Assembly: GCA_001795735.1 (NCBI GenBank)
Contig: MGKQ01000001.1
Span: forward strand, 14,808 to 78,807
Direction of reading: 5' to 3'
From: Candidatus Yanofskybacteria bacterium RIFCSPLOWO2_02_FULL_41_13
Lineage (GTDB): Bacteria; Patescibacteriota; Minisyncoccia; 2-02-FULL-40-12; GWA2-44-9
DNA length: 64,000 bases
Both the position numbers and the translations under genes were made by a program. Within the stretch, counting starts at the first letter, position 1, and every line of letters starts with the position of its first letter. The notes beneath the pieces are model-generated. The model saw only the letters and a list, made by a program, of their open reading frames with translations, did no database searches and was not told the origin of the DNA. Below are positions 1,114 through 37,259 of this stretch, in pieces.

Positions 1114-2715
1114 ATGACTATTAACTTTAATTCTCCGAACTACCTACCAAATTCAGAACAACGACTAGAGCATCTCCGTCGTATTATTAATGGACGCCCG
1201 GTAGCTATTTTGGTCGCCGGCCCTTCGATTAGTGAACTGGAAGAAAGGATCGGCGAACTCTCCCAAGCGGATATTTGTTACTTCGGAATGAACAATTTTT
1301 TTGTTCAGGAAAATCACATTTTAAAAAAAATAGGCAAACATTTTTCCTTATTGGTTGAAGCTGTCGACAACACCAATAAATCATTCTCTTTGGTCTTCAA
1401 TAGAATTATAGACTTTCTGGACAGAAGTGAGGACAATATGCTTGTTTCTTCCTTTACGAACTTTAAAATATCAGGCCCGAATTTTGATTTCCAAAAATTT
1501 TTGCATAAATATAACAATAAACTTCTTTCCCCCTGCGGCGTTTACGACAGGACCGTACCGAATGATGCCCAGCCCCTGCATCTTATACATGGTAACTCAC
1601 TCTCGTGGCTGATATATTTAGCTATTATCGGCAAAGCCTCCAAAATTAGCCTGTTTGGGGCAGACGGTTACACTAAAAACGAGAATACAAAAAAGACGTA
1701 TTACCGCTCTGAAGAATATGGCACAATGCCCCAGAAACAGCTTATGAATAATACCGATAAAGGCTTCAATCCGGTTGTTCCACTTTCATTACAAAATATT
1801 TATAAAACCTACGATCTTAAACCAATACCAATTTTAAATTGTTCTGAAGTTAGCTTTTTAACTCCCTTTCCGAAGGTCTCATATGATGACGCTTTTAATT
1901 TCCTGCTGGGCATAAAGCACACGCAAGAGATTTCTGATCTGCGTATTCCAACCGCCTCAATTATCATCCCAACCCCGGTAGATGATGAAAAACTAAAGAA
2001 TACTTTGAAAAATATTGCCGAACAGTCTTATTCAAATTACGAGACGGTTATCGTCCAAAAGAGTTCAGATTTCTTGGACGCCATGAAAAAAGCCATATCT
2101 TCGGCCAAGGGAAAATATGTTTTCTACTGTCCGCCGGACAACAGCTATCCGGATATTCATTGGATTAATTCTTGCTTAGAAATACTAGAGAACAGGCCCC
2201 AGATTTCCTTAGTCTGCGGTCTGCCTAAAAATACTGAACGGCCTTGGCCAAAGAAAAAGTTTATATATTACTGGCTCAAGAAAAAAAACTTCTTCCCGCC
2301 GAACATGCTCTGCGTCCGAAAGCAAGTTCTGGAAAAGTTTCTGCTCGAGACTGATATCGTCCGTGCAAATACAGAGTTTGAGAATTGGCTGAACTTTAGC
2401 TTATTTTTTAATATGAGCGGGTACTTGCCGGCTTTTATTCCGACAACTATCGCCAAGCATGATCGGACAAGTGAAGACGATGAATCACTAGATAATTACA
2501 GGCGCCAAGTTAATGACTATAAGAATCGTCTCATCTTTAAAAAGACATCGCATCATTTCAGAGACGGCGACGGCAATATCCTACCGGGCAAATTCTATCT
2601 AAGCATATTTTTACTTTATGGTTTAGCCGAGAAAGTTAACAGTAGGTTGCCTCTTTCCTTGCACACTTACTTAAATATTGCTAAAAATATAGTTAGAAAA
2701 TTTTATCAAAAATAA
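1114..2715 (+). CDS. two-domain protein: N-terminal DUF115/Maf-like (MptE-like) domain fused to a degenerate GT2-like glycosyltransferase domain
   Basis: N-terminal GRPVAILVAGPSISE...YFGMNNF pattern as in motility-accessory-factor/DUF115 proteins. C-terminal IIIPTPVDD...YETVIV resembles GT-A fold family 2. Confidence 0.5.
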   Translation: MTINFNSPNYLPNSEQRLEHLRRIINGRPVAILVAGPSISELEERIGELSQADICYFGMNNFFVQENHILKKIGKHFSLLVEAVDNTNKSFSLVFNRIIDFLDRSEDNMLVSSFTNFKISGPNFDFQKFLHKYNNKLLSPCGVYDRTVPNDAQPLHLIHGNSLSWLIYLAIIGKASKISLFGADGYTKNENTKKTYYRSEEYGTMPQKQLMNNTDKGFNPVVPLSLQNIYKTYDLKPIPILNCSEVSFLTPFPKVSYDDAFNFLLGIKHTQEISDLRIPTASIIIPTPVDDEKLKNTLKNIAEQSYSNYETVIVQKSSDFLDAMKKAISSAKGKYVFYCPPDNSYPDIHWINSCLEILENRPQISLVCGLPKNTERPWPKKKFIYYWLKKKNFFPPNMLCVRKQVLEKFLLETDIVRANTEFENWLNFSLFFNMSGYLPAFIPTTIAKHDRTSEDDESLDNYRRQVNDYKNRLIFKKTSHHFRDGDGNILPGKFYLSIFLLYGLAEKVNSRLPLSLHTYLNIAKNIVRKFYQK

Positions 2716-2780
2716 ATTAAAAGTGAATTTTAAAACACGTCATAAAAAACTTGTCAATAATTTAATTATCCACTTTTTGC

Positions 2781-2809
2781 TTGACACCTTTTGACACCTT
2801 TTGATACTG
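2781..2809 (+). promoter_or_regulatory. promoter-like motif TTGACACC-TTTTGACACC-TTTTGATACT (duplicated -35-like TTGACA, -10-like GATACT)
   Basis: Perfect TTGACA at 2781 and 2791, and GATACT 16 nt after the first. The same composite motif recurs at 23616 and 24789. Confidence 0.5.
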
Positions 2810-2844
2810 TTAATCTGGGTAAGTTATTCTTTCTATTTTTATAT

Positions 2845-2888
2845 TTACCTGTACGGCCCGCTATCATATAAGCGGGCCGTACAGGTAA
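2845..2888. promoter_or_regulatory. perfect 18-bp-arm palindrome (TTACCTGTACGGCCCGCT / AGCGGGCCGTACAGGTAA) with an 8-nt loop in the leader of the HTH gene. Candidate operator or stable 5'-UTR hairpin.
   Basis: Arms checked base by base. GC-rich core. Ends 16 nt before the ATG at 2904. No T-run follows. Confidence 0.55.
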
Positions 2889-2903
2889 TAAACCTTTTAA
2901 ATT

Positions 2904-3149
2904 ATGGCTGAAATTAATCCAAACGAAGTCTACACAACAAGCGAGGCTCAATCGCTTCTTAAGATCAGCAACAGCACTATAAAGCGCCTTCTAAAAAGAG
3001 GTGCCATCAAGGCTAATAAAATAGGAGGACAATATCGCGTCATGGGCAAAGAACTTTTGAGACTCCTGTCCCCCACCATAGAAAGACGGGCAGTAGAAAC
3101 CTATCAACGCTTAAAGAAAAAAGTTAAAAGAAAAATTAAAACCTGGTAA
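2904..3149 (+). CDS. small helix-turn-helix DNA-binding protein (excisionase/MerR-like HTH_17 family)
   Basis: SEAQSLLKISNSTIKRLLKRGAIKANKIGGQYRV is the characteristic excisionase-family HTH. Confidence 0.65.
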   Translation: MAEINPNEVYTTSEAQSLLKISNSTIKRLLKRGAIKANKIGGQYRVMGKELLRLLSPTIERRAVETYQRLKKKVKRKIKTW

Positions 3150-3191
3150 GTATTTGTCCGAGAGTGAAATGATCGGTAACAAATACTTACC
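3145..3191. repeat. 13-bp perfect inverted repeat (GGTAAGTATTTGT / ACAAATACTTACC) hairpin overlapping the stop of the HTH gene
   Basis: Seen in sequence. 21-nt loop containing a CCGA/TCGG mini-stem. No T-run. Confidence 0.5.
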
Positions 3192-3479
3192 CCCTCACTC
3201 GAAATATGTATTATTTTTATGTGTTAAAATCAGAAAAAGACAACAATCTATACTTTGGGTATACGAATAATATAAAACAGAGATTTGAGGATCATAACAA
3301 GGGCAAGGTGAGCTCAACGAAGAACAGAAGACCGTTAACCTTGCCCTATTATGAAGCATACGAGTCAGAGAAAGATGCCAGGAACAGAGAACTACAAATT
3401 AAACGTAGAGCAAAAGCTTTTATTAGCTTAAAGCGAAGGATCATATATAGCATTATCTAATTTATTTCGAGTGAGGGGG
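3190..3479. repeat. perfect 16-bp inverted repeats (CCCCCTCACTCGAAAT / ATTTCGAGTGAGGGGG) precisely bracketing the GIY-YIG ORF
   Basis: IR-L at 3190-3205 abuts the ATG at 3206. IR-R at 3464-3479 starts 4 nt after the stop. Confidence 0.6.
3206..3460 (+). CDS. GIY-YIG domain small protein (UPF0213/YhbQ-like)
   Basis: YFYVLKS...LYFGYTNNIKQRFEDHN matches the GIY-YIG motif. About 84 aa. Confidence 0.75.
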   Translation: MYYFYVLKSEKDNNLYFGYTNNIKQRFEDHNKGKVSSTKNRRPLTLPYYEAYESEKDARNRELQIKRRAKAFISLKRRIIYSII

Positions 3480-5447: not shown

Positions 5448-5453
5448 TCCATA

Positions 5454-8481: not shown

Positions 8482-8484
8482 CAT

Positions 8485-23645: not shown

Positions 23646-23669
23646 TGCATAGTGGGTGTTTCTGCAATT

Positions 23670-24843: not shown

Positions 24844-25830
24844 ATGCTCGATAATAAGACAATTCTGATAACCGGGGGGACGGGTTCATTCGGCAAAAAT
24901 TTTGCCAAATTTTTACTCAAAAGTAGCGGGCTCAAAAAGCTCATTATTTTCAGCCGAGATGAGTTCAAGCAATACGAGATGCAGAAAGAAATAAGCGATC
25001 CGCGTATACGTTTTTTTATCGGTGATGTTCGGGATTTGCCACGTCTTCAGCGTGCCTTCCATGGTGTTGATATCGTTATCCATGCCGCCGCGCTTAAACA
25101 AGTTCCTACGCTGGAGTACAATCCCTTTGAAGCAGTAAAGACGAATATAATCGGGTCGCAGAATGTAATTGATGCTTCAATTGACCAGAGTGTTTCAAAA
25201 ACACTGCTCATTTCAAGCGACAAGGCTGTTCAGCCAATCAACCTTTATGGGGCGACTAAATTGGCCGCCGAAAAGCTTTTTGTGGCCGCAAACTCTTATA
25301 CATCGCTCACAAAACGTAGTATCTTCAGTGCGGTACGCTATGGTAATGTAATGGGAAGCCGAGGCAGTATCGTTGAGGCGCTTCTTAAAAAACCTGCCGC
25401 AGAAAAGGTATTTATAACCCATCCGGACATGACTCGTTTTTGGCTTACCCTGTCAGAGAGCTTCCACCTTGTTTTATTTGCTATTAAGCATATGGGTGGC
25501 GGAGAAATAATCGTGCCTAAAATTCCCAGCATGAAGATAACCGAACTTTTTGATGCCCTTGCTCCGCGGGCTAAAAAAGTAATCACCGGCATACGACCGG
25601 GAGAAAAAATTCATGAAACGCTTTTAACTGAGCATGAGGCGCGCAATACCATATTAGTAGGGAATCATTTCGTTATTCTTCCTGAATTTACTTCAAAACC
25701 AAAATTTTTCGAACATTACTATACGCTGGGAAGCAAGCTTGATAACCATACTCCCTTCGCCAGTGATAACAACACAGTATGGCTAACCAAAAAAGAACTA
25801 AAATCAAAAATAAAACCGACGCTACTCTAA
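24844..25830 (+). CDS. pseB: UDP-N-acetylglucosamine 4,6-dehydratase (PseB/FlaA1-like short CapD family)
   Basis: KTILITGGTGSFGKNF and overall PseB/FlaA1-type extended SDR of about 330 aa. Confidence 0.75.
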   Translation: MLDNKTILITGGTGSFGKNFAKFLLKSSGLKKLIIFSRDEFKQYEMQKEISDPRIRFFIGDVRDLPRLQRAFHGVDIVIHAAALKQVPTLEYNPFEAVKTNIIGSQNVIDASIDQSVSKTLLISSDKAVQPINLYGATKLAAEKLFVAANSYTSLTKRSIFSAVRYGNVMGSRGSIVEALLKKPAAEKVFITHPDMTRFWLTLSESFHLVLFAIKHMGGGEIIVPKIPSMKITELFDALAPRAKKVITGIRPGEKIHETLLTEHEARNTILVGNHFVILPEFTSKPKFFEHYYTLGSKLDNHTPFASDNNTVWLTKKELKSKIKPTLL

Positions 25831-26939
25831 AACGAAGTCCGATCCCCTATGGTCGACAGAGGATAGGCGCCGATGACATCAGAACAGTTATCAGTGTGCT
25901 CAAATCAGATTGGCTCACTCAGGGCCCTATGGTGAAAAGGTTTGAAGAATCATTAGCTCGTTACTGCGGAGCAAAATTTGCTGTTGCCGTATCCAGCGGT
26001 ACCGCCGCCCTTCATCTGGCGTATTTAGCCGCCGGACTTCAACCCGATGATGAAGTAATAACGACACCGAATACATTCGTTGCCACATCCAATATGCTTT
26101 TAGCCGTAAAAGCTAGGCCAGTTTTTTGCGATATCCGGCTGGATAATTACAACCTTGATGAAACTAAAATAGAATCGCTGATTACCTCCAAAACAAAAGC
26201 TATCGTACCGGTCCACTTCGCCGGACATCCCTGTGAAATGGATAGTATTCTGAGTCTGGCAAAAAAACATAATCTTCTCGTGATTGAAGATGCCTGTCAT
26301 GCATTGGGGGCATCGTATAAAAATACTAAAGTTGGTGGTATCGGAGATATGACTGTTTTTAGCTTTCATCCGGTCAAATCTATTACCACCGGCGAGGGAG
26401 GAGCAATACTAACAAACAATAAAAACTTTTATGAAAAATTATTATTATTAAGGTCTCACGGCATAACAAAGGATAAAAATGGATTCAATGTTATGGCCGA
26501 GCTGGGACATAATTACCGAGTTACGGATATTCAAGCAGCGCTTGGCTTAAGTCAGCTTAAGAAGCTAGATGGATTTATTAAAAAAAGAAGTGAGCTTATG
26601 TCCGGATATTATAGAGAGTTAAAAGATGTGAAGAATATCATACTCCCGAGAATAACTGAAAACATAATTTCCGCCGGTCATATTTTTATTATAAGAGTCA
26701 AAGACCGGGCAAAAAGGCTAAAATTGATGGAATTCCTAAAAAATAATGGCATCGGGGTTAACTTTCACTATCCGGCCGTTTACTCTCATCCTTATTACAG
26801 ACAGAATGGATATGACGGACTAACACTAGACAACGAGGAGATATATAGCAGTTCGTGCGTCACTCTCCCCCTCTACCCGAACTTAAAACTAGAAAGTATA
26901 GAGTATATCTGCGATAAAATAAAAACTTTTTTCAAATGA
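25779..26939 (+). CDS. pseC: DegT-family sugar aminotransferase with canonical Lys (PseC-like UDP-4-amino-4,6-dideoxy-sugar transaminase)
   Basis: IPYGRQ.I...D...WLTQG N-terminus and FSFHPVKSITTGEGG. Exact start uncertain (overlaps the pseB 3' end). Confidence 0.75.
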   Translation: MANQKRTKIKNKTDATLKRSPIPYGRQRIGADDIRTVISVLKSDWLTQGPMVKRFEESLARYCGAKFAVAVSSGTAALHLAYLAAGLQPDDEVITTPNTFVATSNMLLAVKARPVFCDIRLDNYNLDETKIESLITSKTKAIVPVHFAGHPCEMDSILSLAKKHNLLVIEDACHALGASYKNTKVGGIGDMTVFSFHPVKSITTGEGGAILTNNKNFYEKLLLLRSHGITKDKNGFNVMAELGHNYRVTDIQAALGLSQLKKLDGFIKKRSELMSGYYRELKDVKNIILPRITENIISAGHIFIIRVKDRAKRLKLMEFLKNNGIGVNFHYPAVYSHPYYRQNGYDGLTLDNEEIYSSSCVTLPLYPNLKLESIEYICDKIKTFFK

Positions 26940-27571
26940 TAAAATCAACTGCTCAGGAAAAATTTTGGTCATCGGAATTCGGCAAGGAATATATGGAAAG
27001 AAACACCCTTTCTCTGCAGGAGTTGAATAAACTTTATACAACGAACTTCGGCGTATCCCGTTCACGAATTAATAAAGATTTCCTGGGGAAATTAAAAATA
27101 GGAAACATTTTAGAGATTGGATGCAACGTCGGAAACCAATTAGCACTGCTCCAAGAAGAGGGTTTTAAGAATTTATATGGCATAGAAATATTTCCGAAGG
27201 CTGTAGAGCTGGCTAAAACCCACACCAAAAGTATCAATATAGTTCAGGGAAGCGGATTTGACCTCCCGTTTAAAGATAATAGCTTTGACCTTGTATTTAC
27301 TGCCGGGGTACTGATCCACATAAGTCCAAAAGATATAAAAAAAATCATGAAGGAAATACATCGGGTCAGTAAAAAGTACATCTGGGGATTTGAGTATTTT
27401 AGTCCAGACCACATTGCCATTCCCTATCGGGGCAATAAGGACCGGCTCTGGAAAGGTGACTTTGCTAAAATGTATACGAGCCAGTTCCCTGATCTAAAAT
27501 TAGTGAAGGAAAAAAGATATAAATACCTCCAAAACGACAACCTTGATTGTGGATTTCTATTAAAAAAATGA
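26936..27571 (+). CDS. class I SAM methyltransferase (pseudaminic-acid-biosynthesis-associated-methylase-like)
   Basis: ILEIGCNVGNQL motif I. ATGA overlap with the aminotransferase gene. Position inside the Pse-like module. Confidence 0.65.
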   Translation: MIKSTAQEKFWSSEFGKEYMERNTLSLQELNKLYTTNFGVSRSRINKDFLGKLKIGNILEIGCNVGNQLALLQEEGFKNLYGIEIFPKAVELAKTHTKSINIVQGSGFDLPFKDNSFDLVFTAGVLIHISPKDIKKIMKEIHRVSKKYIWGFEYFSPDHIAIPYRGNKDRLWKGDFAKMYTSQFPDLKLVKEKRYKYLQNDNLDCGFLLKK

Positions 27572-29388
27572 GAACATATTTACTGTTCGAGATAGCCAAC
27601 TCCCACGGAGGGTCGAAGGATTATGTATATAAGCTGATAGACGCCCTTCCGCAGGGAAAAAATACCCGCCTTCGCCAAGGCTTCGGCGGGCAAGCCGGGA
27701 TAAAGTTCCAGGTTTTTAAATATGACCAGCTCGCCCTAAAAGATTATGAATGGTACAAGGTTTACGTAAAATTATTTTTCGATAAGGCCAGCTGGAAGAA
27801 GATACTGTTATACACTAAAGGCAAGGGTTTTGATATTTGGATAGACGTTTTTGACTTATATAGTGTCGAAGTGCTTAAGGATAATTTAAATTTAGTTACC
27901 GGCATAAAACTTCAGTCTTCCGTACTGGATAATCTTAGGGTCCTAAAAGGTCTTTCGGAGGTCATAAGGGGCAAGAAGATTAAAGTTATTCTAAATGTTG
28001 CCGGAAGAGAGATAGATAACATAAAAGAAATCCTGACCGATATTAGAGCCGGCTACTTTAGTAACGAGATAATGCTTCAGTGCGGATTCCAGGCCTATCC
28101 GACCGACGCCGAAGACCTGACGATACACAAAATACATGTTTTAAAGTCGGAATTTCCGGACCTAGTCGTATCTTATGCTGACCATGTTGACGGCAAGTCT
28201 CCCCTAGCCTTTGATGTTCCCGTTTTTGCAGTTCTGGCCGGAGCGGGACACATTGAAAAGCATGTCTGCCTGGACAGAAAAAAAACTAAATATGATTTTC
28301 AATCTGCAGTAGAGCCTCATGAACTCACCCTATTGCTATACAAACTAAAGGAGTGCGAAAAAATATTAGGAACAAAACTTATATCCGAAAAAGAGGCAAA
28401 CTATCTTAAGACGACAATAGAAAAACCAATAACTTCCGTTGATATAAGGGCGAGAGATGTTATAAATCTCAAAAATTTCGATTTCAGACGAACTTCTCAG
28501 GAAGGGCTAACTGTCGGCGAGTTGAAAGAAATGATGAAGAAAAGATATGTATTCAGCAAAGACGTTAAGACAGGACAAACAATAAAAAAAAGTAGTTTGA
28601 AAAAGGCGAGGATAGGGGTGCTAATCGCTTGCCGGATGAAATCAACCAGACTAAAGCACAAGGCCGTACTTCCTATCGGTAAATTCAGCTCGATAGAAAG
28701 ATGCATAATAAATGCAAAGAAAATAAAATCAGCTGATGAAATAATCTTAGCCACATCTGCCTTAGCCGAAGACCAGATCCTTAAAAAATATGCCTTGAAG
28801 CACAAGATAAGATTTTTTGCCGGAGACCCGGAAGATGTAATCGCAAGATTTTTGGGGGCTACAGAAAAATACAACTTGGATATAGCTATCAGAGTTACCG
28901 GCGATTGTCCGATAGTTTCATACGAAATGGCTGAGTTTATACTTCAAAGACATTTTGAAAAAGGCAATGACTATACCGGACCAAAAGCGTTCGCCGTCGG
29001 CCAGAATAGCGAAATATACAGCGTAAACACCTTAAAGAGGGTGCTAGAATACTTGGGCGACGCCAGACATTCAGAATATATGACCTGGTACATGCTGACC
29101 AATAAAGACATATTTCAAGTGGATATGGCTGAATTACCGAAAGAATGGGTACGGAACTATCGCCTAACCCTTGATGTTCAGGAAGACCTTGATATGTTCA
29201 ACGCACTGTTTGAGAAGCTTGGAATCAAGGAACCAAGTATAAAAAATGTGTTTGATGTTATCGATAAGAATCCAAGGATACACGAACTCAATGACGCCAT
29301 CGGCTTAAAATACAAAACTGACCAGAAATTAATAGACTTATTAACTAGAGAAACTAAAATTAATCCCCCTAGACCCAAACGACTATGA
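27568..29388 (+). CDS. two-domain protein: N-terminal NeuB/PseI-like TIM-barrel domain fused to C-terminal acylneuraminate cytidylyltransferase-like (PseF/SpsF-like) domain
   Basis: N-terminal LLFEIANSHGG resembles the NeuB family. C-terminal IGVLIACRMKSTRLKHKAVLPIG resembles CMP-sugar synthetases. ATGA-coupled start at 27568. Confidence 0.6.
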   Translation: MRTYLLFEIANSHGGSKDYVYKLIDALPQGKNTRLRQGFGGQAGIKFQVFKYDQLALKDYEWYKVYVKLFFDKASWKKILLYTKGKGFDIWIDVFDLYSVEVLKDNLNLVTGIKLQSSVLDNLRVLKGLSEVIRGKKIKVILNVAGREIDNIKEILTDIRAGYFSNEIMLQCGFQAYPTDAEDLTIHKIHVLKSEFPDLVVSYADHVDGKSPLAFDVPVFAVLAGAGHIEKHVCLDRKKTKYDFQSAVEPHELTLLLYKLKECEKILGTKLISEKEANYLKTTIEKPITSVDIRARDVINLKNFDFRRTSQEGLTVGELKEMMKKRYVFSKDVKTGQTIKKSSLKKARIGVLIACRMKSTRLKHKAVLPIGKFSSIERCIINAKKIKSADEIILATSALAEDQILKKYALKHKIRFFAGDPEDVIARFLGATEKYNLDIAIRVTGDCPIVSYEMAEFILQRHFEKGNDYTGPKAFAVGQNSEIYSVNTLKRVLEYLGDARHSEYMTWYMLTNKDIFQVDMAELPKEWVRNYRLTLDVQEDLDMFNALFEKLGIKEPSIKNVFDVIDKNPRIHELNDAIGLKYKTDQKLIDLLTRETKINPPRPKRL

Positions 29389-30548
29389 AACTAAAATACT
29401 GCACAAAATGTGTAATGCCAGCCACAAAACCCGATCTTTTTTTTGATAAGGATGGGGTATGCGACGCATGCAGATCAGCAGAACTCAAATATGACAAAAT
29501 AAAGGGTATCGACTGGAATGCCCGACGCAAAGAATTTGAGCGCATTATCGAAAAGTACCGCTCCAAGGACGGAAAAAATTATGATTGCATCATTCCTGTC
29601 AGTGGCGGCAAAGATAGCCACTACCAAACTTATATCATGAAGGTGGTTTACAAAATGAATCCCCTTCTTGTTTGCTTTGAACAAACAAAAATCAGCGAAT
29701 TGGGCAAAAAGAATATGGAAAATATCAGGAAATTCGGGTGCGACATGATATATTTTAAGAAAAATCCGGAAGTATACCGAAAATTGGAGGTAGAAGGATT
29801 AAAACGAGTCGGCGACAACGACTGGCCGAATCATGTAGGCTGTTTTACTATTCCCGTAAGAGTAGCCGTTCAATTCAACATACCTTTGCTTATCTGGGGA
29901 GAAAATTCCCAGCTGGAATACGGCGGGCCGGCAACGGCCAGGGAGAAAAATTACCTTGATCGTAGATGGATGGAAGAATTCACCCTTTTAGGTAATCGTG
30001 TCGAGGACATGATAGGCGTAGATGGAATAACCAAAGAAGATATGCTCATCTACACTTATCCGGACGACAAAGACTTGAAGCGAGTCGGCGTTACGGGTCT
30101 TTTTTTAGGTTATTTTTTCTTGTGGGATCAGCGCAAGCAAGTAGAGCTCATAAGAAAGAAGTATGGATTCAATATAAAAGAAGATGGCCCCATAGAGGGA
30201 ACGTACACGAACTACGAGAATCTTGATGATGCAACCGTGGGACTGCATGATTACCTTAAATTCACTAAGTATGGTTTTGGCCGGGGAACAGATCATGCAT
30301 GTACCGATATCCGGAACGGCCGGATAACCAGAGAAGAGGGACTGGATCTTGTACGAAAATATGATGGCAAATATCCTTATTACGGAGTAAAAAGCTTCTG
30401 TGAAATGTCGGGCATGAGCAAGAAAGAGGTTGATAAATATATTGATTCTTTCACTAATAAGCAGATATTCAAAATGGATAAAAGAGGTAAGTTTTTACGT
30501 GATATGGCGGGTAATCTAATAAAAAATAACTATGACAACGAGCTTTAA
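29385..30548 (+). CDS. N-acetyl sugar amidotransferase (PP-loop ATPase; WbpG/WbuX/PseA-like)
   Basis: CTKCVMP zinc ribbon and PP-loop IIPVSGGKDS. Followed by HisH/HisF paralogs, as in acetamidino-sugar pathways. Confidence 0.8.
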   Translation: MKLKYCTKCVMPATKPDLFFDKDGVCDACRSAELKYDKIKGIDWNARRKEFERIIEKYRSKDGKNYDCIIPVSGGKDSHYQTYIMKVVYKMNPLLVCFEQTKISELGKKNMENIRKFGCDMIYFKKNPEVYRKLEVEGLKRVGDNDWPNHVGCFTIPVRVAVQFNIPLLIWGENSQLEYGGPATAREKNYLDRRWMEEFTLLGNRVEDMIGVDGITKEDMLIYTYPDDKDLKRVGVTGLFLGYFFLWDQRKQVELIRKKYGFNIKEDGPIEGTYTNYENLDDATVGLHDYLKFTKYGFGRGTDHACTDIRNGRITREEGLDLVRKYDGKYPYYGVKSFCEMSGMSKKEVDKYIDSFTNKQIFKMDKRGKFLRDMAGNLIKNNYDNEL

Positions 30549-31149
30549 AAAAGTTGTTATCATTGATTACCAGATGGGTAATGTAGCATCGGTTATTAAG
30601 GCATTCGAGAAGCTAGGAGCAAAGATTAAATTATCCCGAAATAAAAATGATATAGAAAAAGCTGAATATCTTGTCTTGCCCGGGGTAGGAGCTTTCGGAG
30701 ATGGAATGAAGAATCTCAAACAGTTTGGAATAATTGATGTTCTCTCACGGCAAGTAAAGAAAGGCGTGCCATTTCTAGGTATTTGCCTGGGGATGCAATT
30801 GTTAGCTGAGCGAGGTTATGAATTCGGAGAGTGCAAGGGTCTTGGCTGGATAAAAGGCAAGGTAATAAAACTCAAATCTCCCACCGTACCCCATATCGGC
30901 TGGAACGATGTGAGGGTAACTAAAAATAAAAAAATTCTAAGCAATCTGCCTGATAATAATTTTTACTTTATCCACAGTTATTTTTTAAAACCCAACAACA
31001 AGTCGATAATAGCAGCTACTTGCAAACATGGACATGAGTTTACCGCCGCCATAGAACAAGGAAATATTTGGGGCACCCAGTTCCATCCCGAAAAAAGCCA
31101 GTCAAGCGGACTGAAGGTCTTGGATAACTTCCTGAACTACCATGCTTAA
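30532..31149 (+). CDS. hisH: imidazole glycerol phosphate synthase HisH-like glutamine amidotransferase (WbuY-like)
   Basis: VIIDYQMGNVASV...GICLGMQ...HPE class I GATase. Confidence 0.8.
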   Translation: MTTSFKKVVIIDYQMGNVASVIKAFEKLGAKIKLSRNKNDIEKAEYLVLPGVGAFGDGMKNLKQFGIIDVLSRQVKKGVPFLGICLGMQLLAERGYEFGECKGLGWIKGKVIKLKSPTVPHIGWNDVRVTKNKKILSNLPDNNFYFIHSYFLKPNNKSIIAATCKHGHEFTAAIEQGNIWGTQFHPEKSQSSGLKVLDNFLNYHA

Positions 31150-31915
31150 AACCAGAGTGATGCCCTGCATGCTTTTCAATGGCCTGCATTTGATAAAGAC
31201 TATACAATTCGACCAGATCAGAAACCTTGGAAATCCGGTCCAAATGGCCAGAGTATACAATTCGCGCAACGTTGATGAACTTATATTTATAGACATGAAA
31301 GCGACTGAAGAAGACAGACCTCCAGCTTATGAAATTATAAAAGATATAATTGCCGAATGCTTTATGCCTTTAACCGTTGGAGGAGGAATTCATTCCATAG
31401 AAGTTATTCATAGATTACTAAAAATCGGAGCTGATAAAGTATGCATAAATTCCGAGGCCATAAATAATCCCGCCTTTGTGACTGCCGCCGCAAAAAAATT
31501 TGGAAGCCAATGCATCGTGATAAGTATTGACGTTAAACAAGTCCGTAAAGACCACTATGTTTTTAAATCGCGGGGACGAGAAAATACAAACATAACCGTA
31601 ATCGAATGGGTTAAACAGGTAGAGAAACTAGGCGCCGGAGAGATATTCCTTACTTCAATCGACAAAGATGGAACCATGGATGGATACGATTTGGACCTCA
31701 TAAAAAAAGTTAGCTCCGCCGTGTCAGTTCCTGTCATTGCCTGTGGTGGAGCAGGCAAAGTCCAGGATATAATTGATGCAGTAAAACTCGGTGGCGCTGA
31801 TGCCATATCGCTTGCCAGCATCTTCCATTATGGGGGTCACACGCCAAACAGCATAAAGCAAAGAATGTATAATGCCGGAATACCCGTAAGATTCATTGAC
31901 AAGAACCAAATATAA
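31142..31915 (+). CDS. hisF: imidazole glycerol phosphate synthase HisF-like cyclase subunit (WbuZ-like)
   Basis: RVMPCML...VGGGI...ADKV TIM-barrel HisF pattern. Confidence 0.8.
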   Translation: MLKTRVMPCMLFNGLHLIKTIQFDQIRNLGNPVQMARVYNSRNVDELIFIDMKATEEDRPPAYEIIKDIIAECFMPLTVGGGIHSIEVIHRLLKIGADKVCINSEAINNPAFVTAAAKKFGSQCIVISIDVKQVRKDHYVFKSRGRENTNITVIEWVKQVEKLGAGEIFLTSIDKDGTMDGYDLDLIKKVSSAVSVPVIACGGAGKVQDIIDAVKLGGADAISLASIFHYGGHTPNSIKQRMYNAGIPVRFIDKNQI

Positions 31916-31923: not shown

Positions 31924-32580
31924 ATGATTCAGTACTTTAATATCCGAGGGACTATGATTAAAAAAATTGACATCATAACCGTACTTGGCGGAAGTTTATT
32001 TAAAGAAGCTGACGGCAATTGGAGAACCACGAGCTTTGAGGATCTCCAACATAATGGCGCGGCGGGCATGGGTGACAATCTGCGAGTTATTGCCGGAAAT
32101 TTACTTTTTCAGACGCTACATCGAAAATTGCCTGGCTCAGTTCTGGTATCTGGAGGAAGAGGCAAAAATTGTAACGATTCGGCTAAACCAACGGTATCTT
32201 CTATTATGAAGAAAGAACTTATAGCACTTGGCCTTCCGGGAAAATTCATAGCCGAAGACCCTCATTCTAATTCTACTTATGCTCAACTTCTCTGGTTAAG
32301 CAAGTATATGAACAATAAAACTGGCATAGTCGGCATAGTATCAAATGAGTACCATTTGCCACGAATACAGGCATTTATTGACTGGCGGCCGGAATTAAAT
32401 CTGTTATGTGATAGGGCCGCCTTAATATCTGCCGAGCAAATCCTTACCGCTAAAGATCCTAAAAAATGGCGTGAGAAAATAAGCGATGCTTATAGAACCA
32501 GCGCGATGCAGGATATTATAGCCCGCGAAAAAAACGGAATTGAGAATATCAAGAAGGGGCAATACAAATTTTATGTCTAA
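31924..32580 (+). CDS. DUF218 (YdcF/SanA-like) domain protein
   Basis: VSGG...AEDPHSNSTYAQ...HLPR pattern of DUF218. Confidence 0.55.
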   Translation: MIQYFNIRGTMIKKIDIITVLGGSLFKEADGNWRTTSFEDLQHNGAAGMGDNLRVIAGNLLFQTLHRKLPGSVLVSGGRGKNCNDSAKPTVSSIMKKELIALGLPGKFIAEDPHSNSTYAQLLWLSKYMNNKTGIVGIVSNEYHLPRIQAFIDWRPELNLLCDRAALISAEQILTAKDPKKWREKISDAYRTSAMQDIIAREKNGIENIKKGQYKFYV

Positions 32581-33313
32581 GGCAAATAACTTATTTATAA
32601 TTTTCGGGACATCCAGGGGTCTGGGCTTTGCCTTGTGCAATTATATATTGCAATTCTCCCATAATGATATTCTGGCGATAGACAGGAGAAAGCTACCGGG
32701 CATTTCTTCTGGTCGCCTCCAAAGAACTATTATTGACTTATCTAAACCTCTCTCGCCAACTGCAATATCAGGTCTACTTCGTTCTTCACTCCTAAAAAAT
32801 TATAAGAACCTGTATCTCATAAATAACGCTTCCCTTCTGGAGCCGATAGGTCCCGCCGGTAAGGTTAATACAGTTGAACTAACACGGCTAGCCAGTGTTA
32901 ATTTTCTGAATTATGCCGTTATTATTAACGAGTTCATGAGACGAACTAAAAATCTGAGAGCGCGCAAAAGAATACTTAATGTCACTTCAGGCGCTTCTGT
33001 TCATCCCCAGTATGGCCTAGCGGGATACTGCAGTACAAAAGCTGCGCTTGAAATGTTTGGAAGCTGTATCTTTCTAGAGCAACAGGTGCTTAATCAGGTA
33101 GAGATTATGTCTTTTAGGCCGGGCGTTATAAATACGGATATGCAAAAAAAACTACGGGAAAGCTCGGGGGCAAATTTTCTGAATAATAAGGTTCATCAGG
33201 AATTGTATACAAAAAATGCCCTACTTACTCCCGAATACGTAGCAAAAATAATGTACGGTACTTTAACTGCCCGTAAAAAATGGGCTGAGCCAATTTTAGA
33301 TTTAAGTATATGA
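32573..33313 (+). CDS. short-chain dehydrogenase/reductase
   Basis: FIIFGTSRGLGFAL. Start set at the ATG overlapping the upstream stop. Confidence 0.7.
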   Translation: MSKANNLFIIFGTSRGLGFALCNYILQFSHNDILAIDRRKLPGISSGRLQRTIIDLSKPLSPTAISGLLRSSLLKNYKNLYLINNASLLEPIGPAGKVNTVELTRLASVNFLNYAVIINEFMRRTKNLRARKRILNVTSGASVHPQYGLAGYCSTKAALEMFGSCIFLEQQVLNQVEIMSFRPGVINTDMQKKLRESSGANFLNNKVHQELYTKNALLTPEYVAKIMYGTLTARKKWAEPILDLSI

Positions 33314-34344
33314 TCAAAGCTCTTGTTACTGCATGCGGCGGAGATATAGGGCAAGGGGTCATAAAATCCCTTCGAATGTCCGGTGAAAAAATAAGAGTCA
33401 TCGGCACCGAAATCACAGCTGACAATTGCGGATTATTTATGGCTGACAAAGGTTATATACTTGAACCGGTTCTTAAAAATGAGAAAAGATACCTGAAGCA
33501 GTTAGTTGCCATATGTAATGAGGAACGGGTCGATATCGTATTTGTATGTTTTGAAGCCGAACAATCTGCCATTGCCAGCGCGATAAATATACTAAATAAA
33601 AAAACAGGGGCTTACTTTGTAGTTCAGTCCAAAAAGACTTTAGATATCTGTCAGGAAGACAAATCGCTCACATACGCATTTCTGTCTAAGCGGGGCATCC
33701 GAGTACCCGAAACCTACACGACAAAGAAAATGGCTGAAATATTGATTAAAAAGTATGGTTGGCCTATTATTCTTAAGCCTAGACAGAGTTCCGGATCAAG
33801 AGATGTACACATAATCCGTACACGAAAAGAGCTTGATATCTTATGGGATAAGATAGACAAGCCCTTGATCCAAGAATACATCAACAACGGTCAGGATGAC
33901 GAATATACAGTCGGTGTCTTCTTAAATAAGGATTCCGAGGCCCTAGGAGCAATTGCTATGTTAAGAAAACTAAAACTGGGAATGACTTGGCATGCGATAG
34001 TCAATCATTACCCGGACATAGAGGAGATCGCCGGAAAGACCGCAGAGAGCGTAGGCGCAATAGGACCATGTAATATACAAATTCGAAGAGATAGAAACAA
34101 CAAGCCATGCGTCATAGAGATAAACGCCAGAATCTCAAGTACCACTGTATTCAGAGCAAAATTAGGATTTAACGAGGCCCTGGCATCTATAGACTATTTC
34201 TTAAAAGGTAAGATACCTAAGCTAAGTCACAGACCGGCCGTAATAATGCGTACATTTGGTGAGTATATAGTTCCATTAGATAAATATCTAAAAATTAAAT
34301 CGAAAAATATTACTAATGCAAATGAAAAGTATGAAACCAATTAG
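33310..34344 (+). CDS. ATP-grasp domain protein (carboxylate-amine ligase-like)
   Basis: Pre-ATP-grasp N-terminal domain, then WPIILKPRQSSGSRDV...EYIN and EINAR ATP-grasp motifs. ATGA-coupled. Confidence 0.65.
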   Translation: MIKALVTACGGDIGQGVIKSLRMSGEKIRVIGTEITADNCGLFMADKGYILEPVLKNEKRYLKQLVAICNEERVDIVFVCFEAEQSAIASAINILNKKTGAYFVVQSKKTLDICQEDKSLTYAFLSKRGIRVPETYTTKKMAEILIKKYGWPIILKPRQSSGSRDVHIIRTRKELDILWDKIDKPLIQEYINNGQDDEYTVGVFLNKDSEALGAIAMLRKLKLGMTWHAIVNHYPDIEEIAGKTAESVGAIGPCNIQIRRDRNNKPCVIEINARISSTTVFRAKLGFNEALASIDYFLKGKIPKLSHRPAVIMRTFGEYIVPLDKYLKIKSKNITNANEKYETN

Positions 34345-35398
34345 TATTGAAACAAGGGGGGGCATAAGGCACATAGGGCCAGGCTACCCCTCTTTTATTG
34401 TCGCCGAACTATCAGGAAACCATAGCCAATCATACAAAACTGCCTGCAAAATTATTGACGCGATAGCAGACACAGGCGCCGATGCCGTAAAACTCCAGAC
34501 TTACACCGCCGATACGATGACCATCGATTCGGATAAAAAATACTTTAAACTGACAGGGAGCAAGCTTTGGAAAGGAGAGACGCTCTATGGTCTATATAAA
34601 AAAGCATCTACTCCCTGGGACTGGCATCCGAGATTAAAAAGCTACGCCGAGAAGAGAGGCCTTGTATTTTTTTCCACTCCTTTTGACAATACCGCTGTTG
34701 ATTTTTTAAAAAAAATGAATGTTCCTCTTTACAAGGTCGCCTCATATGAACTGACCGACACTCCCTTGCTCCAAAAAATTGCCAGTACAAAAAAGCCTGT
34801 TATTTTGTCCAGGGGCATGGCTTCAATCAAAGAAATAGGCCTAGCTATAAATACATTAAGAAAATACGGAACGAGACAAATCGCAGTATTGCATTGCATA
34901 AGTTCATATCCTACAGACCCAAAGGATATGAATCTTAGAACTATTCCTGACATAATGAGTAGATTCCGGGTTATTTCTGGATTGTCGGACCACAGCATTA
35001 CCAACAATGCTGCTATCGCCTCCATAGCCCTGGGAGCAAGCATCATTGAAAAGCATATTACCCTGAACCGCCACGACAAAGGAGTCGATTCTAAATTTTC
35101 TTTGGAACCACATGAATTTAAAGATCTCGTTAAAGCAGTGAGGGAGACGGAGAATGCTTTGGGCAAAATACATTATGCTACAACGCTCTCAGAGATAAAT
35201 GACAAATTATATCGTCGGTCTTTATTCATAACCAAGAGCATTCGGAAGGGAGAAAAATTTACCAAAAATAACACCAGGATAATTAGACCCGGTTACGGCC
35301 TAGCACCAAGATACTTCAGTATGGTAATCGGGAAAAAAGCTAAGAAAAATATAGAGAGGGGGACTCCCCTGACCCGGAGACTCATCTTGTCAAAATAG
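34316..35398 (+). CDS. pseI: nonulosonic acid synthase (NeuB/PseI family) with C-terminal SAF domain
   Basis: AELSGNHSQSYKTACKIIDAIADTGADAVKLQTY...LHCISSYP plus C-terminal SAF-like region. Confidence 0.8.
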   Translation: MQMKSMKPISIETRGGIRHIGPGYPSFIVAELSGNHSQSYKTACKIIDAIADTGADAVKLQTYTADTMTIDSDKKYFKLTGSKLWKGETLYGLYKKASTPWDWHPRLKSYAEKRGLVFFSTPFDNTAVDFLKKMNVPLYKVASYELTDTPLLQKIASTKKPVILSRGMASIKEIGLAINTLRKYGTRQIAVLHCISSYPTDPKDMNLRTIPDIMSRFRVISGLSDHSITNNAAIASIALGASIIEKHITLNRHDKGVDSKFSLEPHEFKDLVKAVRETENALGKIHYATTLSEINDKLYRRSLFITKSIRKGEKFTKNNTRIIRPGYGLAPRYFSMVIGKKAKKNIERGTPLTRRLILSK

Positions 35399-35450
35399 GA
35401 TGGAATGGTATATTTTAATACGAGTTCTTTAATTTTTCCAAGGAGATAAG

Positions 35451-36362
35451 ATGTCTGATTTAACAGCATTTCGACAACCTCTTCCGGGCGTATTACGCAT
35501 AGAGCCTGCATCAGCCTGCAATTTTAAATGCATCCACTGCCCAACCGGCCTAGGTATGAATCCGGATACGGGGATCATGACTGAAGAGACTTTTTCCGGT
35601 ATTCTTAGCCGAATTAAGCATTTACAATTCCGCGTTATTGTTCTCTACCATGGAGGCGAACCTTTGCTGAATCCCAGGTTTGCTGAAATGATCAAACGTG
35701 TCAGGCCTTACACTAAATTCATAAAAACGGTTACTAATGGTTCCATTTTGACTCAACGTCGTATAGATGAGATACTGGCAAGCGATCTTGATCTGATTGA
35801 GGTATCTATTGATGGCGATTCGCCGGAAGAGAACGATCAAATACGCAAGAACGCAAAATGTGAAAAAATCATTACTGCCGTTAAAGCAATTATTGATACT
35901 AAAAGGCGCCTAGGCCTGGACAGGCCCAAGGTGAATATTGGCAATGTGCGTATTCCGGGTTCAAATACCAATACCAACCTACCTCCAGACGTACCAGAGT
36001 TTTTAAAAAAAGCTTTTGTAGGTTACGAACAGGACATCATGTTTCGTATGTATTATGCTTTAGTCTGGGCAAATATGATAGGCAGTGAAAATAAAATTCC
36101 TGAAAATAACTATTGTGACAACGTGGTGAATACCATCACTGTTCGCCATAATGGAGACGTGGTGCCATGCTGTTACGATTTGACCAGCTCCATGGTCATG
36201 GGCAACCTCCTTACTGAATCCCTTGAGAGTATCTGGAACAATGACCGCTATTTAAAACTTAGGGCGGCTATCGCAAATTTTCAGCCGCCAGCCCCGTGCC
36301 AAAACTGCCTAGTTCTATATCCTTCCCGCCACTTAAAATCCAGTGAAATCAGCCTGGTATGA
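35451..36362 (+). CDS. radical SAM protein with C-terminal Cys-rich SPASM-like region
   Basis: ASACNFKCIHCP motif, C-terminal CCYDL...C..CQNC. AAGGAG SD. Confidence 0.7.
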   Translation: MSDLTAFRQPLPGVLRIEPASACNFKCIHCPTGLGMNPDTGIMTEETFSGILSRIKHLQFRVIVLYHGGEPLLNPRFAEMIKRVRPYTKFIKTVTNGSILTQRRIDEILASDLDLIEVSIDGDSPEENDQIRKNAKCEKIITAVKAIIDTKRRLGLDRPKVNIGNVRIPGSNTNTNLPPDVPEFLKKAFVGYEQDIMFRMYYALVWANMIGSENKIPENNYCDNVVNTITVRHNGDVVPCCYDLTSSMVMGNLLTESLESIWNNDRYLKLRAAIANFQPPAPCQNCLVLYPSRHLKSSEISLV

Positions 36363-36365
36363 TCT

Positions 36366-37259
36366 ATGCAGCGCGCACTATGCGCGCTTTTAATTCTAAA
36401 TAAAAAGATTCCGATGAATCCGATACGATCGATTAAAAAAATAGCTTTGCAGTATCAACTATATTTTAAATATCGTGATATGCTAGCAAAGAATAAAAAG
36501 CTTAAAAATACCGAGAGCAAGCGGTGTTTTATTATAGGTACCGGACCCTCTGTTAAAGACCAGGACTTATTGCGCTTAAAAGATGAGGATACATTTGTAG
36601 TAAACTCTTTTTGGAATCACCCGCAATATAAAGAAATAAACCCTAAGTACTACGTGATGATAGATTGGGATATATTCCCTGTCGGTGATCAAAAAGGTAA
36701 TTTCGTATCAGATGAAGTTATACAAAAGCAAGAACTGTTGAATTCTTGCTCAACTAAATTCTTCTTTCACTCATTCGGCAAAGAATTTATAGAAAAAAAC
36801 GGGCTCCTGCAGAATAACAGAATCTACTACCTAATGAACCATGGGGTAATGGATGAAAAATTAAAATTCAACATTGATATAGAAAAGGTTATTCCATACA
36901 CAAAAAACGTAATTGTAGCTTCAATAATGATTGCTGCCTACATGGGCTTTGAGGAAATATACCTTCTCGGCTGTGAACATGACTACCTGGCATATCCGGC
37001 ACAGAAGTACTACGAGAAGTTTCCCCATTTTTTTAAAAATCCCTACGAGCTTAGCAATAAAAAATCATCGAGTTATTATATTATGGCCGTTATGCCGTAT
37101 GAAAAACATATTTACAACTCTCTTATTTTATTTAGGAACTACCGCCTGCTGAAAGAGAAGCTGAGCAGAGAAAAACCTAATCTTAAGATTTATAATGCCA
37201 CACCCAATAGTTATTTAGACGTATTTCCGATGGTTAAATATGAGGACATTATTCTCTAA
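36366..37259 (+). CDS. DUF115 (Maf / motility-accessory-factor-like, MptE-like) protein
   Basis: CFIIGTGPSV...FVVNSF pattern as in the DUF115 domain of Maf proteins. Confidence 0.5.
   Translation: MQRALCALLILNKKIPMNPIRSIKKIALQYQLYFKYRDMLAKNKKLKNTESKRCFIIGTGPSVKDQDLLRLKDEDTFVVNSFWNHPQYKEINPKYYVMIDWDIFPVGDQKGNFVSDEVIQKQELLNSCSTKFFFHSFGKEFIEKNGLLQNNRIYYLMNHGVMDEKLKFNIDIEKVIPYTKNVIVASIMIAAYMGFEEIYLLGCEHDYLAYPAQKYYEKFPHFFKNPYELSNKKSSSYYIMAVMPYEKHIYNSLILFRNYRLLKEKLSREKPNLKIYNATPNSYLDVFPMVKYEDIIL

Follow-up and report, generated by a model that had tools for sequence, protein, structure and literature searches.

Two open reading frames in the 64,000-nt stretch of DNA analysed here (the window), ORF1 and ORF2, are best explained as sialyltransferase-fold transferases for CMP-ulosonic acids, each with its own donor pathway and most likely with a sugar on a growing oligosaccharide as acceptor, a reading to which we assign a probability of roughly 0.55. 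Fold and conserved synteny lend good support to a function in ulosonic-acid transfer, and the evidence favours decoration of a growing surface glycan rather than direct, Maf-style protein glycosylation. NCBI assigns the identical proteins to Candidatus Yanofskybacteria, an ultrasmall CPR/Patescibacteria lineage presumably without a flagellum, in whose genome the two genes lie in an island for glycan biosynthesis of about 79 kb.

1114..2715, plus strand: ORF1, 533 aa
1114..1950, plus strand: ORF1 N-terminal domain (aa 1-279), DUF115/MptE/Maf/GT42-like fold
1951..2715, plus strand: ORF1 C-terminal domain (aa 280-533), GT-A/GT2-like fold
36366..37259, plus strand: ORF2, minimal stand-alone DUF115/Maf/GT42-like protein, 297 aa as an open reading frame

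The two DUF115-like proteins

The original prediction of two DUF115/Maf-like proteins was borne out, in the HMM comparison partly by the proteins themselves and partly by their relatives. ORF2 matched the Pfam profile PF01973 (MptE-like) with an E value of 8.3e-8 over profile positions 15-168 of 171 (154 positions), its 32.6 bits falling just below the gathering cut-off of 34.6 bits, and precomputed PF01973 assignments are carried by most of its homologues among the 120 listed (185 found). ORF1 itself gave no DUF115/PF01973 match at E≤0.1 in the Pfam scan; at that threshold 40 of 48 members of its family matched the profile (best E 7.5e-7), and the ORF1 and ORF2 families aligned in hhalign with a probability of 91.7% (E 7.6e-7, 219 columns). 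Moreover, both proteins display the modified GT-A/Rossmann-like fold common to Maf, MptE and Cst-II.

ORF2 begins 3 nt past the stop codon of the radical SAM/SPASM gene, which precedes it in the Pse module. NCBI places its start at M17, giving 281 aa, and this is likely the true start (nt 36414). With one domain only and 281-297 aa, the protein is too small to include an acceptor-binding domain, and the annotation shows no small adaptor gene beside it. Against Cst-II, the ORF2 family aligned in hhalign with a probability of 95.7% in the region of the GxGPS and N..F motifs, which are N-terminal and shared with the Campylobacter jejuni GT42 enzymes Cst-I and Cst-II (PDB 2p56, 1ro7, 2wqq); this profile alignment covers just 54 residues, and the catalytic residues of Cst-II are His188, Tyr156 and Tyr162. 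In ORF2, conservation and spacing alone nominate D100, N181 and E204 as candidate catalytic residues. By the same approach, N161/S162 and D184 are candidate catalytic residues of ORF1, in whose N-terminal domain the residues invariant across the family include G36 and S38 (AGPS motif), R104, N108, and D184 and G185 (GADG). We regard this domain as a putative CMP-ulosonic acid transferase domain, and ORF2 as a putative CMP-Pse-derivative transferase.

The C-terminal domain of ORF1 has a GT-A fold and is not a TPR domain, and its earlier description as a degenerate GT2 proved apt. In the Pfam scan, ORF1 itself matched nothing but the N-terminal part of a GT2 profile, of which only positions 1-37 of 168 aligned, to aa 282-318 (24.5 bits). 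No DXD is conserved across the family: relatives have IGDGY or IGNGY at the aligned position, the window protein PDNSY; furthermore, roughly 20-25 residues after beta-2 are deleted, specifically in the Yanofskybacteria clade, and the near-invariant D349 is replaced by His in the window protein. Judged by its sequence, this domain is probably non-canonical or non-catalytic, and it probably helps to bind the acceptor. A true bifunctional glycosyltransferase, in which the DUF115 and GT2-like domains would both be catalytic and add two successive sugars (e.g., as a polymerase or chain-capping enzyme of an exported polysaccharide), would account for the strong conservation of the GT-A domain over 37 fused homologues (Q304, Y306, E310, W350, C354, S365-V367, C400 and R402 among the conserved positions), for its resemblance, in PDB profile matches, to the two-domain synthases of chondroitin and heparosan, and for an ABC-transporter ATPase encoded about 10 kb upstream of a proteobacterial ORF1 homologue, in one gene cluster. 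However, the degenerate features listed above, together with the occurrence of the N-terminal domain on its own in about 25 homologues, make two active sites in ORF1 unlikely.

Donor pathways and conserved gene neighbourhoods

Both ORFs are genetically coupled to the synthesis of CMP-ulosonic acids, which together with the Maf/DUF115 fold makes them good candidates for nonulosonic/ulosonic acid transferases. The genes concerned, with PseB, PseC and PseI called by scores above the NCBIfam equivalog cut-offs, are the following:

312..992, plus strand: SAM methyltransferase, last gene of the upstream ulosonic-acid module
23652..24752, plus strand: stand-alone GT-A glycosyltransferase at the head of the Pse module (NCBIfam TIGR04440, 165 bits, cut-off 70)
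24844..26939, plus strand: PseB, inverting UDP-GlcNAc 4,6-dehydratase (423 bits, cut-off 408), and PseC, aminotransferase (448 bits, cut-off 423)
26936..29388, plus strand: methyltransferase, followed by a protein in which a divergent NeuB-like domain is fused to a CTP_transf_3 cytidylyltransferase
29385..31915, plus strand: WbuX-type N-acetyl sugar amidotransferase, HisH-like and HisF-like genes
31924..34344, plus strand: DUF218 protein, SDR and ATP-grasp ligase, tailoring enzymes
34316..35398, plus strand: PseI pseudaminic acid synthase, NeuB and SAF domains (465 bits, cut-off 340)
35451..36362, plus strand: radical SAM/SPASM enzyme

Within this Pse module, the cytidylyltransferase domain of the 613-aa fusion protein likely performs the CMP-activating step and plausibly fills the role of PseF, and the WbuX-type amidotransferase with the HisH-like and HisF-like proteins would take part in acetamidino formation. 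Pfam scans of the window found no match to PseH (GNAT) or PseG, a gap counted against our explanation; their places may be taken by other enzymes, the ATP-grasp ligase and the amidotransferase being examples.

ORF1 had been placed at the start of the cluster, a position that has to be revised: the island extends at least 8.9 kb upstream of the window, and hence beyond ORF1. In that region lie a NeuB-like protein of 291 aa just outside the window (the third NeuB of the island), a KdsC-family phosphatase (116 bits, cut-off 107), a PseF-like CMP-transferase, radical SAM enzymes and an SDR.

The coupling recurs in related genomes. A pattern scan of GTDB returned 22 loci, all of them from CPR bacteria, and in each of the 12 with a full upstream flank a NeuB-family gene lies within 10 kb of the ORF2 homologue, Leg/Neu-type modules being among them. 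Upstream of ORF1 homologues, a CTP_transf_3 gene was found in 15 of 17 loci and a NeuB-like gene in 11. Counted against our explanation is one stand-alone homologue of the ORF1 N-terminal domain, which has no NeuB or CMP-transferase gene within 10 kb.

In the pathway that we propose, PseB, PseC, the tailoring enzymes, PseI and the CTP_transf_3 cytidylyltransferase would yield a CMP-Pse derivative, to be transferred by ORF2, the product of the last gene of that module. The upstream module (NeuB-family synthase, KdsC-family phosphatase, PseF-like CMP-transferase, radical SAM enzymes and methyltransferases) would provide a different CMP-ulosonic acid by a Kdo/KDN-like route through a phosphorylated intermediate. 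The N-terminal domain of ORF1 would transfer this second product, probably assisted in acceptor binding by the DXD-less GT-A domain.

Nature of the acceptor

The island is rich in glycosyltransferases, with at least 10 further GT4/GT2-type enzymes inside the window and 6 additional GT4 genes directly past its end. These enzymes would assemble a chain at the cytoplasmic face, to a sugar of which ORF1 and ORF2 would add ulosonic acid in the mode of Cst-II; export would follow, taking the completed glycan to the cell surface. In most related CPR loci, a homologue of one of these genes closely follows the ORF2 homologue on its downstream side, and this conserved partner argues for a glycan acceptor:

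38924..40138, plus strand: GT4 glycosyltransferase, 404 aa

In two CPR loci (L017 and L028), the ORF2 homologue is directly followed by a GT2, a Wzx-type flippase (Polysacc_synt_3, E 5e-14 and 2e-15, respectively) and a conserved unclassified 8-TM protein, a combination characteristic of lipid-linked glycan pathways. Along with the ABC-transporter ATPase in the proteobacterial ORF1-homologue cluster (L004), these flippases point to a glycan acceptor. Against it counts the absence of a flippase, polymerase, ABC exporter or priming phosphoglycosyltransferase gene from the window and from about 9-10 kb of either flank, about 83 kb in all; the lack of Wzx, Wzy and ABC genes noted earlier for the window thus extends to its flanks.

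Protein O-glycosylation with a nonulosonic acid, the central proposal of the original prediction, is upheld in part: fold and donor genes support ulosonic-acid transfer; nothing establishes a protein acceptor. In this less likely reading, the DUF115 proteins would be Maf-like O-glycosyltransferases at work in the cytoplasm, where a non-flagellar surface protein (pilin, S-layer protein or adhesin) would receive Pse-type sugars straight on its Ser/Thr residues and be exported afterwards. The local lack of exporter and priming genes fits this alternative, as does the central place of type IV pili and surface adhesins in Patescibacteria biology. A further point in its favour, and one counted against the glycan reading, is a gene set whose families include protein O-glycosylation systems:

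47164..50760, minus strand: YdjC-like deacetylase, GT2 (PgfS/ArnC-like polyprenol-phosphate sugar synthase) and 550-aa GT39/PMT-like GT-C membrane transferase

The GT-C protein (49108-50760), the sole one present, has about 11 TM (hydrophobic) segments and a YHQDEYRW motif after TM1. It gave no Pfam match of its own at E<0.001; many homologues at 50-70% identity, named GT39, carry PF02366 or PF13231 (PMT/PMT_2), so the ArnT/PMT-like transferase previously noted is upheld at family level. Its GT2 partner scored best as PgfS (269 bits, far below the equivalog cut-off of 500), followed by ArnC. The same pairing of a GT2 polyprenol-phosphate sugar synthase with a GT-C occurs in Pgf of Streptococcus mutans (PgfS/PgfM), actinobacterial Ppm1/PMT and the ArnC/ArnT lipid A modification; such systems handle single sugars, and a chain assembled in the cytoplasm would not be exported by them.

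Several observations weigh against direct transfer to protein. Neither an acceptor-binding domain nor an adaptor is evident, a Wzx flippase adjoins the homologue in the two CPR relatives, and the 16 or more other glycosyltransferases of the island imply a complex chain, not a single sugar. Cytoplasmic glycosylation is also unusual for Sec-exported proteins, serine-rich repeat adhesins and HMW1 being exceptions. A search of the flanks for flagellin or pilin genes, which would have supplied a candidate glycoprotein, came back empty: Pfam scans of the window gave no flagellin match; neither the window and its flanks nor the 101 loci fetched (a set in which both flanks are included and parts of the window recur) contained a flagellin or prepilin gene, and none of these loci had a candidate glycoprotein gene near the genes in question; tblastn with a flagellin query (B. 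subtilis Hag) gave 0 matches in the 101 loci. Together with the restriction of all 22 GTDB loci to CPR bacteria, this argues for a glycan acceptor. We consider it doubtful that a type IV pilin, S-layer protein, adhesin or other non-flagellar surface protein of an ultrasmall CPR bacterium receives two different sialic-acid-like sugars, one from the lineage-specific, minimal Maf-like ORF2 and one from ORF1, the DUF115-GT-A fusion. If true, Maf-type protein O-sialylation would for the first time be known outside flagella, and sialylation of CPR surface proteins could bear on host recognition or evasion by episymbionts.

Comparison with known systems

Structurally, the two proteins have their top neighbour in the protein glycosyltransferase Maf rather than in Cst-II, which counts against the glycan reading. 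As with our ORFs, genes for the Maf flagellin glycosyltransferases (compared here: M. magneticum Maf, PDB 5mu5, C. botulinum Maf, G. kaustophilus Maf, and S. oneidensis Maf-1 and Maf-2) adjoin Pse/Leg/Neu-type biosynthesis, and a CMP-ulosonic acid donor is expected; besides Pse and Leg, Maf enzymes are known to use Kdo and Neu5Ac. Ser/Thr residues of a folded protein are the direct targets of Maf, and the catalytic residues of the M. magneticum enzyme are D324, E415 and a conserved Ser. The window ORFs share only 13-14% sequence identity with Maf, and ORF2 (281-297 aa) is about half the size or less of Maf proteins of 441-822 aa. To bind its acceptor, Maf needs flanking domains, a C-terminal TPR domain (Maf-1) or the cis-encoded GlfM adaptor (Maf-2), whereas here there is no TPR domain, no GlfM-like adaptor is annotated nearby, and ORF2 has no extra domain, which favours a glycan acceptor. 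Maf genes lie in or near flagellar loci and their acceptor is flagellin, in contrast to the CPR host and flagellin-free loci described above; unlike Maf, the window ORFs sit among many other glycosyltransferases, with relatives linked to a Wzx flippase.

The acceptor mode that we propose is that of Cst-I and Cst-II, which act on a sugar of a lipid-linked glycan, although the donor of Cst-II is Neu5Ac and here it is probably a Pse derivative. In Tannerella forsythia, the Pse/Leg transferases Tanf_01245 and TFUB4_00887, which are GT-B/TagB-like and not DUF115 proteins, cap the S-layer O-glycan with its terminal NulO, joining a Pse or Leg derivative to a sugar in an oligosaccharide destined for surface proteins. 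The glycan carrying ulosonic acid could likewise end up on a protein in the present host, an outcome that would reconcile the glycan and protein readings.

Very improbable is a role as MptE-type 6-hydroxymethylpterin diphosphokinases or other small-molecule kinases: archaeal MptE (6-hydroxymethyl-7,8-dihydropterin diphosphokinase, PDB 8sd5) gave PF01973 its name, shares that family, the fold and the glycine-rich motif with the window ORFs, and is, on that motif, the only sequence-level PDB match of either N-terminal domain profile, but GT42 and GT29 sialyltransferases match too, ORF1 is fused to a GT-A domain, and the neighbours of the homologues are consistently NeuB, CMP-transferase and glycosyltransferase genes, with no pterin or folate gene among them.

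Repeats upstream of ORF1

The iteron-like repeats reported before ORF1 are real, with no evidence that they are replication iterons.

987..1117, plus strand: intergenic repeat cluster directly upstream of ORF1

The cluster contains three copies of AATATGCAAAT at 997-1056, spaced by 21 and 28 nt, two copies of ATTCGTAGATT(C/T)GCAT, and an inverted ATTTGCAT at 1105 that overlaps the ORF1 start; all 3 matches to ATATGCAAAT in the window fall within the stretch upstream of ORF1. Among 14 homologous genes, the motif was not found within 260 nt upstream of 13, and a single distant copy precedes the homologue in one locus (L037). The repeats are probably a local operator or promoter feature.

Host lineage and extent of the glycan island

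Five genes of the window are central to the following sections:
1114-2715, ORF1, 533 aa, DUF115/Maf-like N-domain (residues 1-279) and GT-A/GT2-like C-domain (residues 280-533)
23652-24752, stand-alone TIGR04440 GT-A protein
27547-29388, NeuB-like/CTP_transf_3 fusion, 613 aa
36366-37259, ORF2, stand-alone DUF115/Maf-like protein
49108-50760, GT39-like membrane protein, 550 aa

A hypothetical protein of Candidatus Yanofskybacteria bacterium RIFCSPHIGHO2_02_FULL matched ORF1 with 100% identity, and exact or near-exact copies of ORF2 and of the GT39-like ORF were present in Yanofskybacteria records, a lineage belonging to the Parcubacteria group (Patescibacteria/CPR). CPR bacteria are in general ultrasmall, with genomes near 1 Mb, and are not known to be flagellated.

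The glycan island was found to extend over about 79 kb, beginning at least 8.9 kb ahead of the window and running on for about 6 kb past its end (position 1 of the upstream flank, L001, to about position 3500 of L011; window about -8900 to +70000), since biosynthetic genes occupy L001 and six further GT4 genes lie downstream, with the end of the island close to an FGase gene and a fragment of a transposase. For a genome of about 1 Mb, the size typical of CPR, the island would take up a considerable part of the coding capacity. Its genes encode three NeuB paralogues, seven radical SAM enzymes, some ten methyltransferases and at least 16 other glycosyltransferases, the latter implying a complex chain. 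ORF1 had been placed at the cluster start, which is incorrect, as sugar-biosynthesis genes continue upstream: the gene order in L001 is aminotransferase, aldo-keto reductase, SDR, B12-radical SAM enzyme, KdsC-family phosphatase (116 bits, cut-off 107), a further radical SAM enzyme, NeuB-family synthase of 291 aa, PseF-like cytidylyltransferase, two methyltransferases and then ORF1. The iteron-like ATGCAAAT repeats upstream of ORF1 are real but specific to this genome; because they are missing within 260 nt upstream of 13 of the 14 homologous genes, a conserved regulatory or iteron role was rejected.

Fold and family of ORF1 and ORF2

Both proteins presented the fold common to the DUF115/MptE-like superfamily. 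ORF2 matched Pfam PF01973 (MptE-like, formerly DUF115/Maf_flag10) over nearly the whole profile (E 8.3e-8), its score of 32.6 bits falling 2 bits short of the gathering cut-off. It has 185 homologues; among the 120 matches listed nearly all were 263-314 aa long and most carried PF01973, in agreement with the DUF115 assignment originally made, and one member of its UniRef 90% cluster is already named 'DUF115 domain-containing protein'. The NCBI start of the gene corresponds to Met17, giving 281 aa, and, at the sensitivity of the searches, this 280-300-aa DUF115 sub-family was detected in CPR genomes alone. An AlphaFold2 model of ORF2 from 42 homologues reached a pLDDT of 89.5. Furthermore, profile comparison of the ORF2 family with the GT42 sialyltransferase Cst-II (sequence checked against 2wqq_A) aligned the N-terminal GxGPS and N..F motifs with 95.7% probability. 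Sequence-profile searches of the PDB with the ORF1 and ORF2 families matched neither Maf nor Cst-II, and retrieved MptE alone, on the glycine-rich motif.

Scanned by itself against Pfam and NCBIfam, ORF1 did not match the DUF115 model, its Pfam match being restricted to positions 1-37 of the GT2 profile. Its DUF115 assignment, also part of the original prediction, is therefore supported by family-level scans, profile comparison and structure, with weak PF01973 matches in 40 of 48 aligned family members and 219 columns aligned between the ORF1 and ORF2 family profiles (91.7% probability). The two-domain form is kept in about 80 of 108 homologues, and the N-domain occurs alone in about 25 more. 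The C-domain was confirmed as a degenerate GT2 domain: a conserved DXD is absent from the family, about 20-25 residues after beta-2 are missing in the Yanofskybacteria clade, and the window protein has His in place of the nearly invariant Asp349. Conservation at many further positions denotes a domain still under selection. The fusion was also considered as the counterpart of a gene pair including the stand-alone TIGR04440 GT-A protein; BLASTP revealed no similarity, leaving this idea unsupported at the sequence level.

No third DUF115-like ORF was detected in the window or flanks with HMMs of both families. Related CPR loci (L005, 8647-9714; L009, 51-1061) encode a third DUF115/MptE-like sub-family, 336-355 aa long, each copy of which adjoins a B12-radical SAM gene; by the family HMMs, the window carries no counterpart.

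Linkage to donor pathways

PseB, PseC and PseI scored above the NCBIfam equivalog cut-offs, and the final gene of this pseudaminic acid (Pse) module is followed after 3 nt by ORF2. Scanning one genome per GTDB species with two peptide patterns, which detect close relatives only, identified relatives of ORF2 in 22 loci, all from CPR. A NeuB-family gene was located upstream of the ORF2 homologue in 12/12 loci with a complete 10-kb upstream flank, several of which carry legionaminic acid (Leg)/Neu-type modules with Epimerase_2, and a homologue of the 404-aa GT4 of the window usually lies just downstream of the ORF2 homologue. Among ORF1 relatives with enough upstream sequence, a CTP_transf_3 homologue was found in 15 of 17 loci and a short NeuB in 11 of 17, often accompanied by a KdsC-type phosphatase and a B12-radical SAM enzyme.

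The donors of Maf enzymes are the CMP-linked forms of Pse, Leg, Neu5Ac and Kdo. Considering this donor range, the position of each protein at the end of a CMP-ulosonic-acid pathway and the conservation of this linkage across relatives, ORF1 and ORF2 are very likely ulosonic-acid transferases, so that this portion of the original prediction was sustained. ORF2 would be a putative transferase for a Pse derivative, and ORF1 for a second ulosonic acid, which may be made through a phosphorylated intermediate, as in the Kdo and KDN routes. An MptE-type kinase function was rejected for both proteins by the genomic context.

In the 613-aa fusion, the NeuB-like domain is divergent, scoring far below the NeuB and PseI cut-offs, and its partner is a CTP_transf_3 cytidylyltransferase; the fusion is conserved with about 70% identity in other Yanofskybacteria loci (L026, L029, L032).

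Possible acceptor of the putative transferases

The acceptor had been proposed to be a surface protein. Flagellar Mafs need a flagellin-binding determinant, such as the TPR domain of Maf-1 (822 aa) or the GlfM adaptor for Maf-2 (441 aa), and ORF2 is a bare catalytic domain of about the size of Cst-II, an enzyme whose sialylation target is a sugar. No flagellin homologue was recovered by tblastn from any of the 101 fetched loci, and a regex scan found no prepilin motif in the window or in any fetched locus; type IV pili are the means of motility described in a 2024 review on Patescibacteria biology, in which flagella and glycans are unmentioned. In two related CPR loci, one from another Yanofskybacteria (L017) and L028, genes for a GT2 and a MOP flippase of the Wzx type come directly after the ORF2 homologue, fused to each other in L028, and a proteobacterial ORF1 homologue shares its cluster with an ABC ATPase. 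Taken together with the at least 16 other glycosyltransferases, these data make a cytoplasmic carrier-linked glycan somewhat more likely as acceptor than a protein.

Three observations count against the glycan acceptor. As originally noted for Wzx/Wzy-type export genes in the window, neither a flippase nor an exporter or priming transferase was identified in the window or flanks; Maf ranked above Cst-II structurally; and the island presents a GT2 and GT-C pair resembling protein O-glycosylation systems, whose GT2 has PgfS as best NCBIfam match, far below the cut-off. The suggested ArnT/PMT-like membrane transferase was corroborated for the ORF at 49108-50760, which itself had no Pfam match and shows about 11 hydrophobic segments with an acidic motif after the first, as well as many homologues (50-70% identical) with PMT or PMT_2 domains, named GT39. 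It was the sole polytopic membrane protein in a scan of the window, where a motif scan found no ABC ATPase motifs. The final destination of the carrier-linked glycan may be a protein, a wall polymer or a lipoglycan.

Directly after Wzx in L017 (13151-14293) and L028 (10740-11888) lies a conserved 380-aa protein (copies 75% identical) with about eight TM segments and an N-terminal GT-C-like motif, NDDGxHYEGF, unmatched in Pfam and NCBIfam, which could act in CPR bacteria as a ligase, polymerase or oligosaccharyltransferase of the GT-C type.

Comparison with known systems

Pse/Leg-type acid transferases are poorly known, very few having been assigned beyond flagellar Maf, FlmG and a few GT-B enzymes. 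ORF1 and ORF2 differ from Maf proper in missing the acceptor-binding determinant and the flagellin context, and resemble GT42 in size and mode, with an alignment of only 54 residues. The Tannerella forsythia NulO transferases, the sole characterised non-flagellar Pse/Leg transferases compared, are GT-B/TagB-like, in contrast to the fold of ORF1 and ORF2, and were discarded as a non-flagellar DUF115 precedent. Full-text searches turned up no paper tying CPR/Patescibacteria to nonulosonic acids. Two uncharacterised sub-families, the 280-300-aa DUF115 type and the DUF115-GT-A fusion, by their tight donor-pathway linkage, constitute testable candidate Pse/ulosonic-acid transferases for non-flagellar acceptors. 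Surface glycans of CPR may matter for host attachment, on which these bacteria depend.

Additional features of the island

Other features were recorded in the window:
2904-3460, HTH_17 ORF (2904-3149) and GIY-YIG ORF, 84 aa
10675-10959, GIY-YIG ORF, 94 aa
46872-47183, GIY-YIG ORF, 103 aa
40135-43977 (-), DUF4956 protein, VTC-domain protein and 808-aa CotH-kinase/beta-helix protein, mid-island
51591-52541 (-), 316-aa ORF with a DSD motif (IASDSDILYY)
60889-62252 (-), GT4 gene, apparently split
3568-23569 and 44136-57298, unusually rich set of sugar-tailoring enzymes

The tailoring set comprises an HddA-like GHMP kinase, a split transketolase, E1 alpha/beta subunits, an acetolactate-synthase-like TPP enzyme, several B12-binding and other radical SAM enzymes, three DegT aminotransferases and many methyltransferases, and points to sugars that are C-branched or C-methylated. 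In the window, no nucleotidyltransferase was seen that would use the product of the GHMP kinase.

The three GIY-YIG ORFs are paralogous (39-49% identical over the aligned region) and lie far apart in the island. An HTH_17 ORF (2904-3149) accompanies the first of them in the 850 bp that separate ORF1 from the GHMP kinase gene; since the kinase gene directly follows the ORF1 homologue in L005 and L039, this segment looks like an insertion. The GT4 gene is divided into 321-aa and 100-aa parts, the latter with the Glycos_transf_1 end, and as two independent assemblies (L011, L012) agree, the split is probably a real frameshift or pseudogene rather than a sequencing error. Finally, the 316-aa ORF had no match in Pfam or NCBIfam and may be a further glycosyltransferase of the GT-A type; in L010, an ORF of comparable length that lacks annotation occurs near GT2 and PMT_2 genes.
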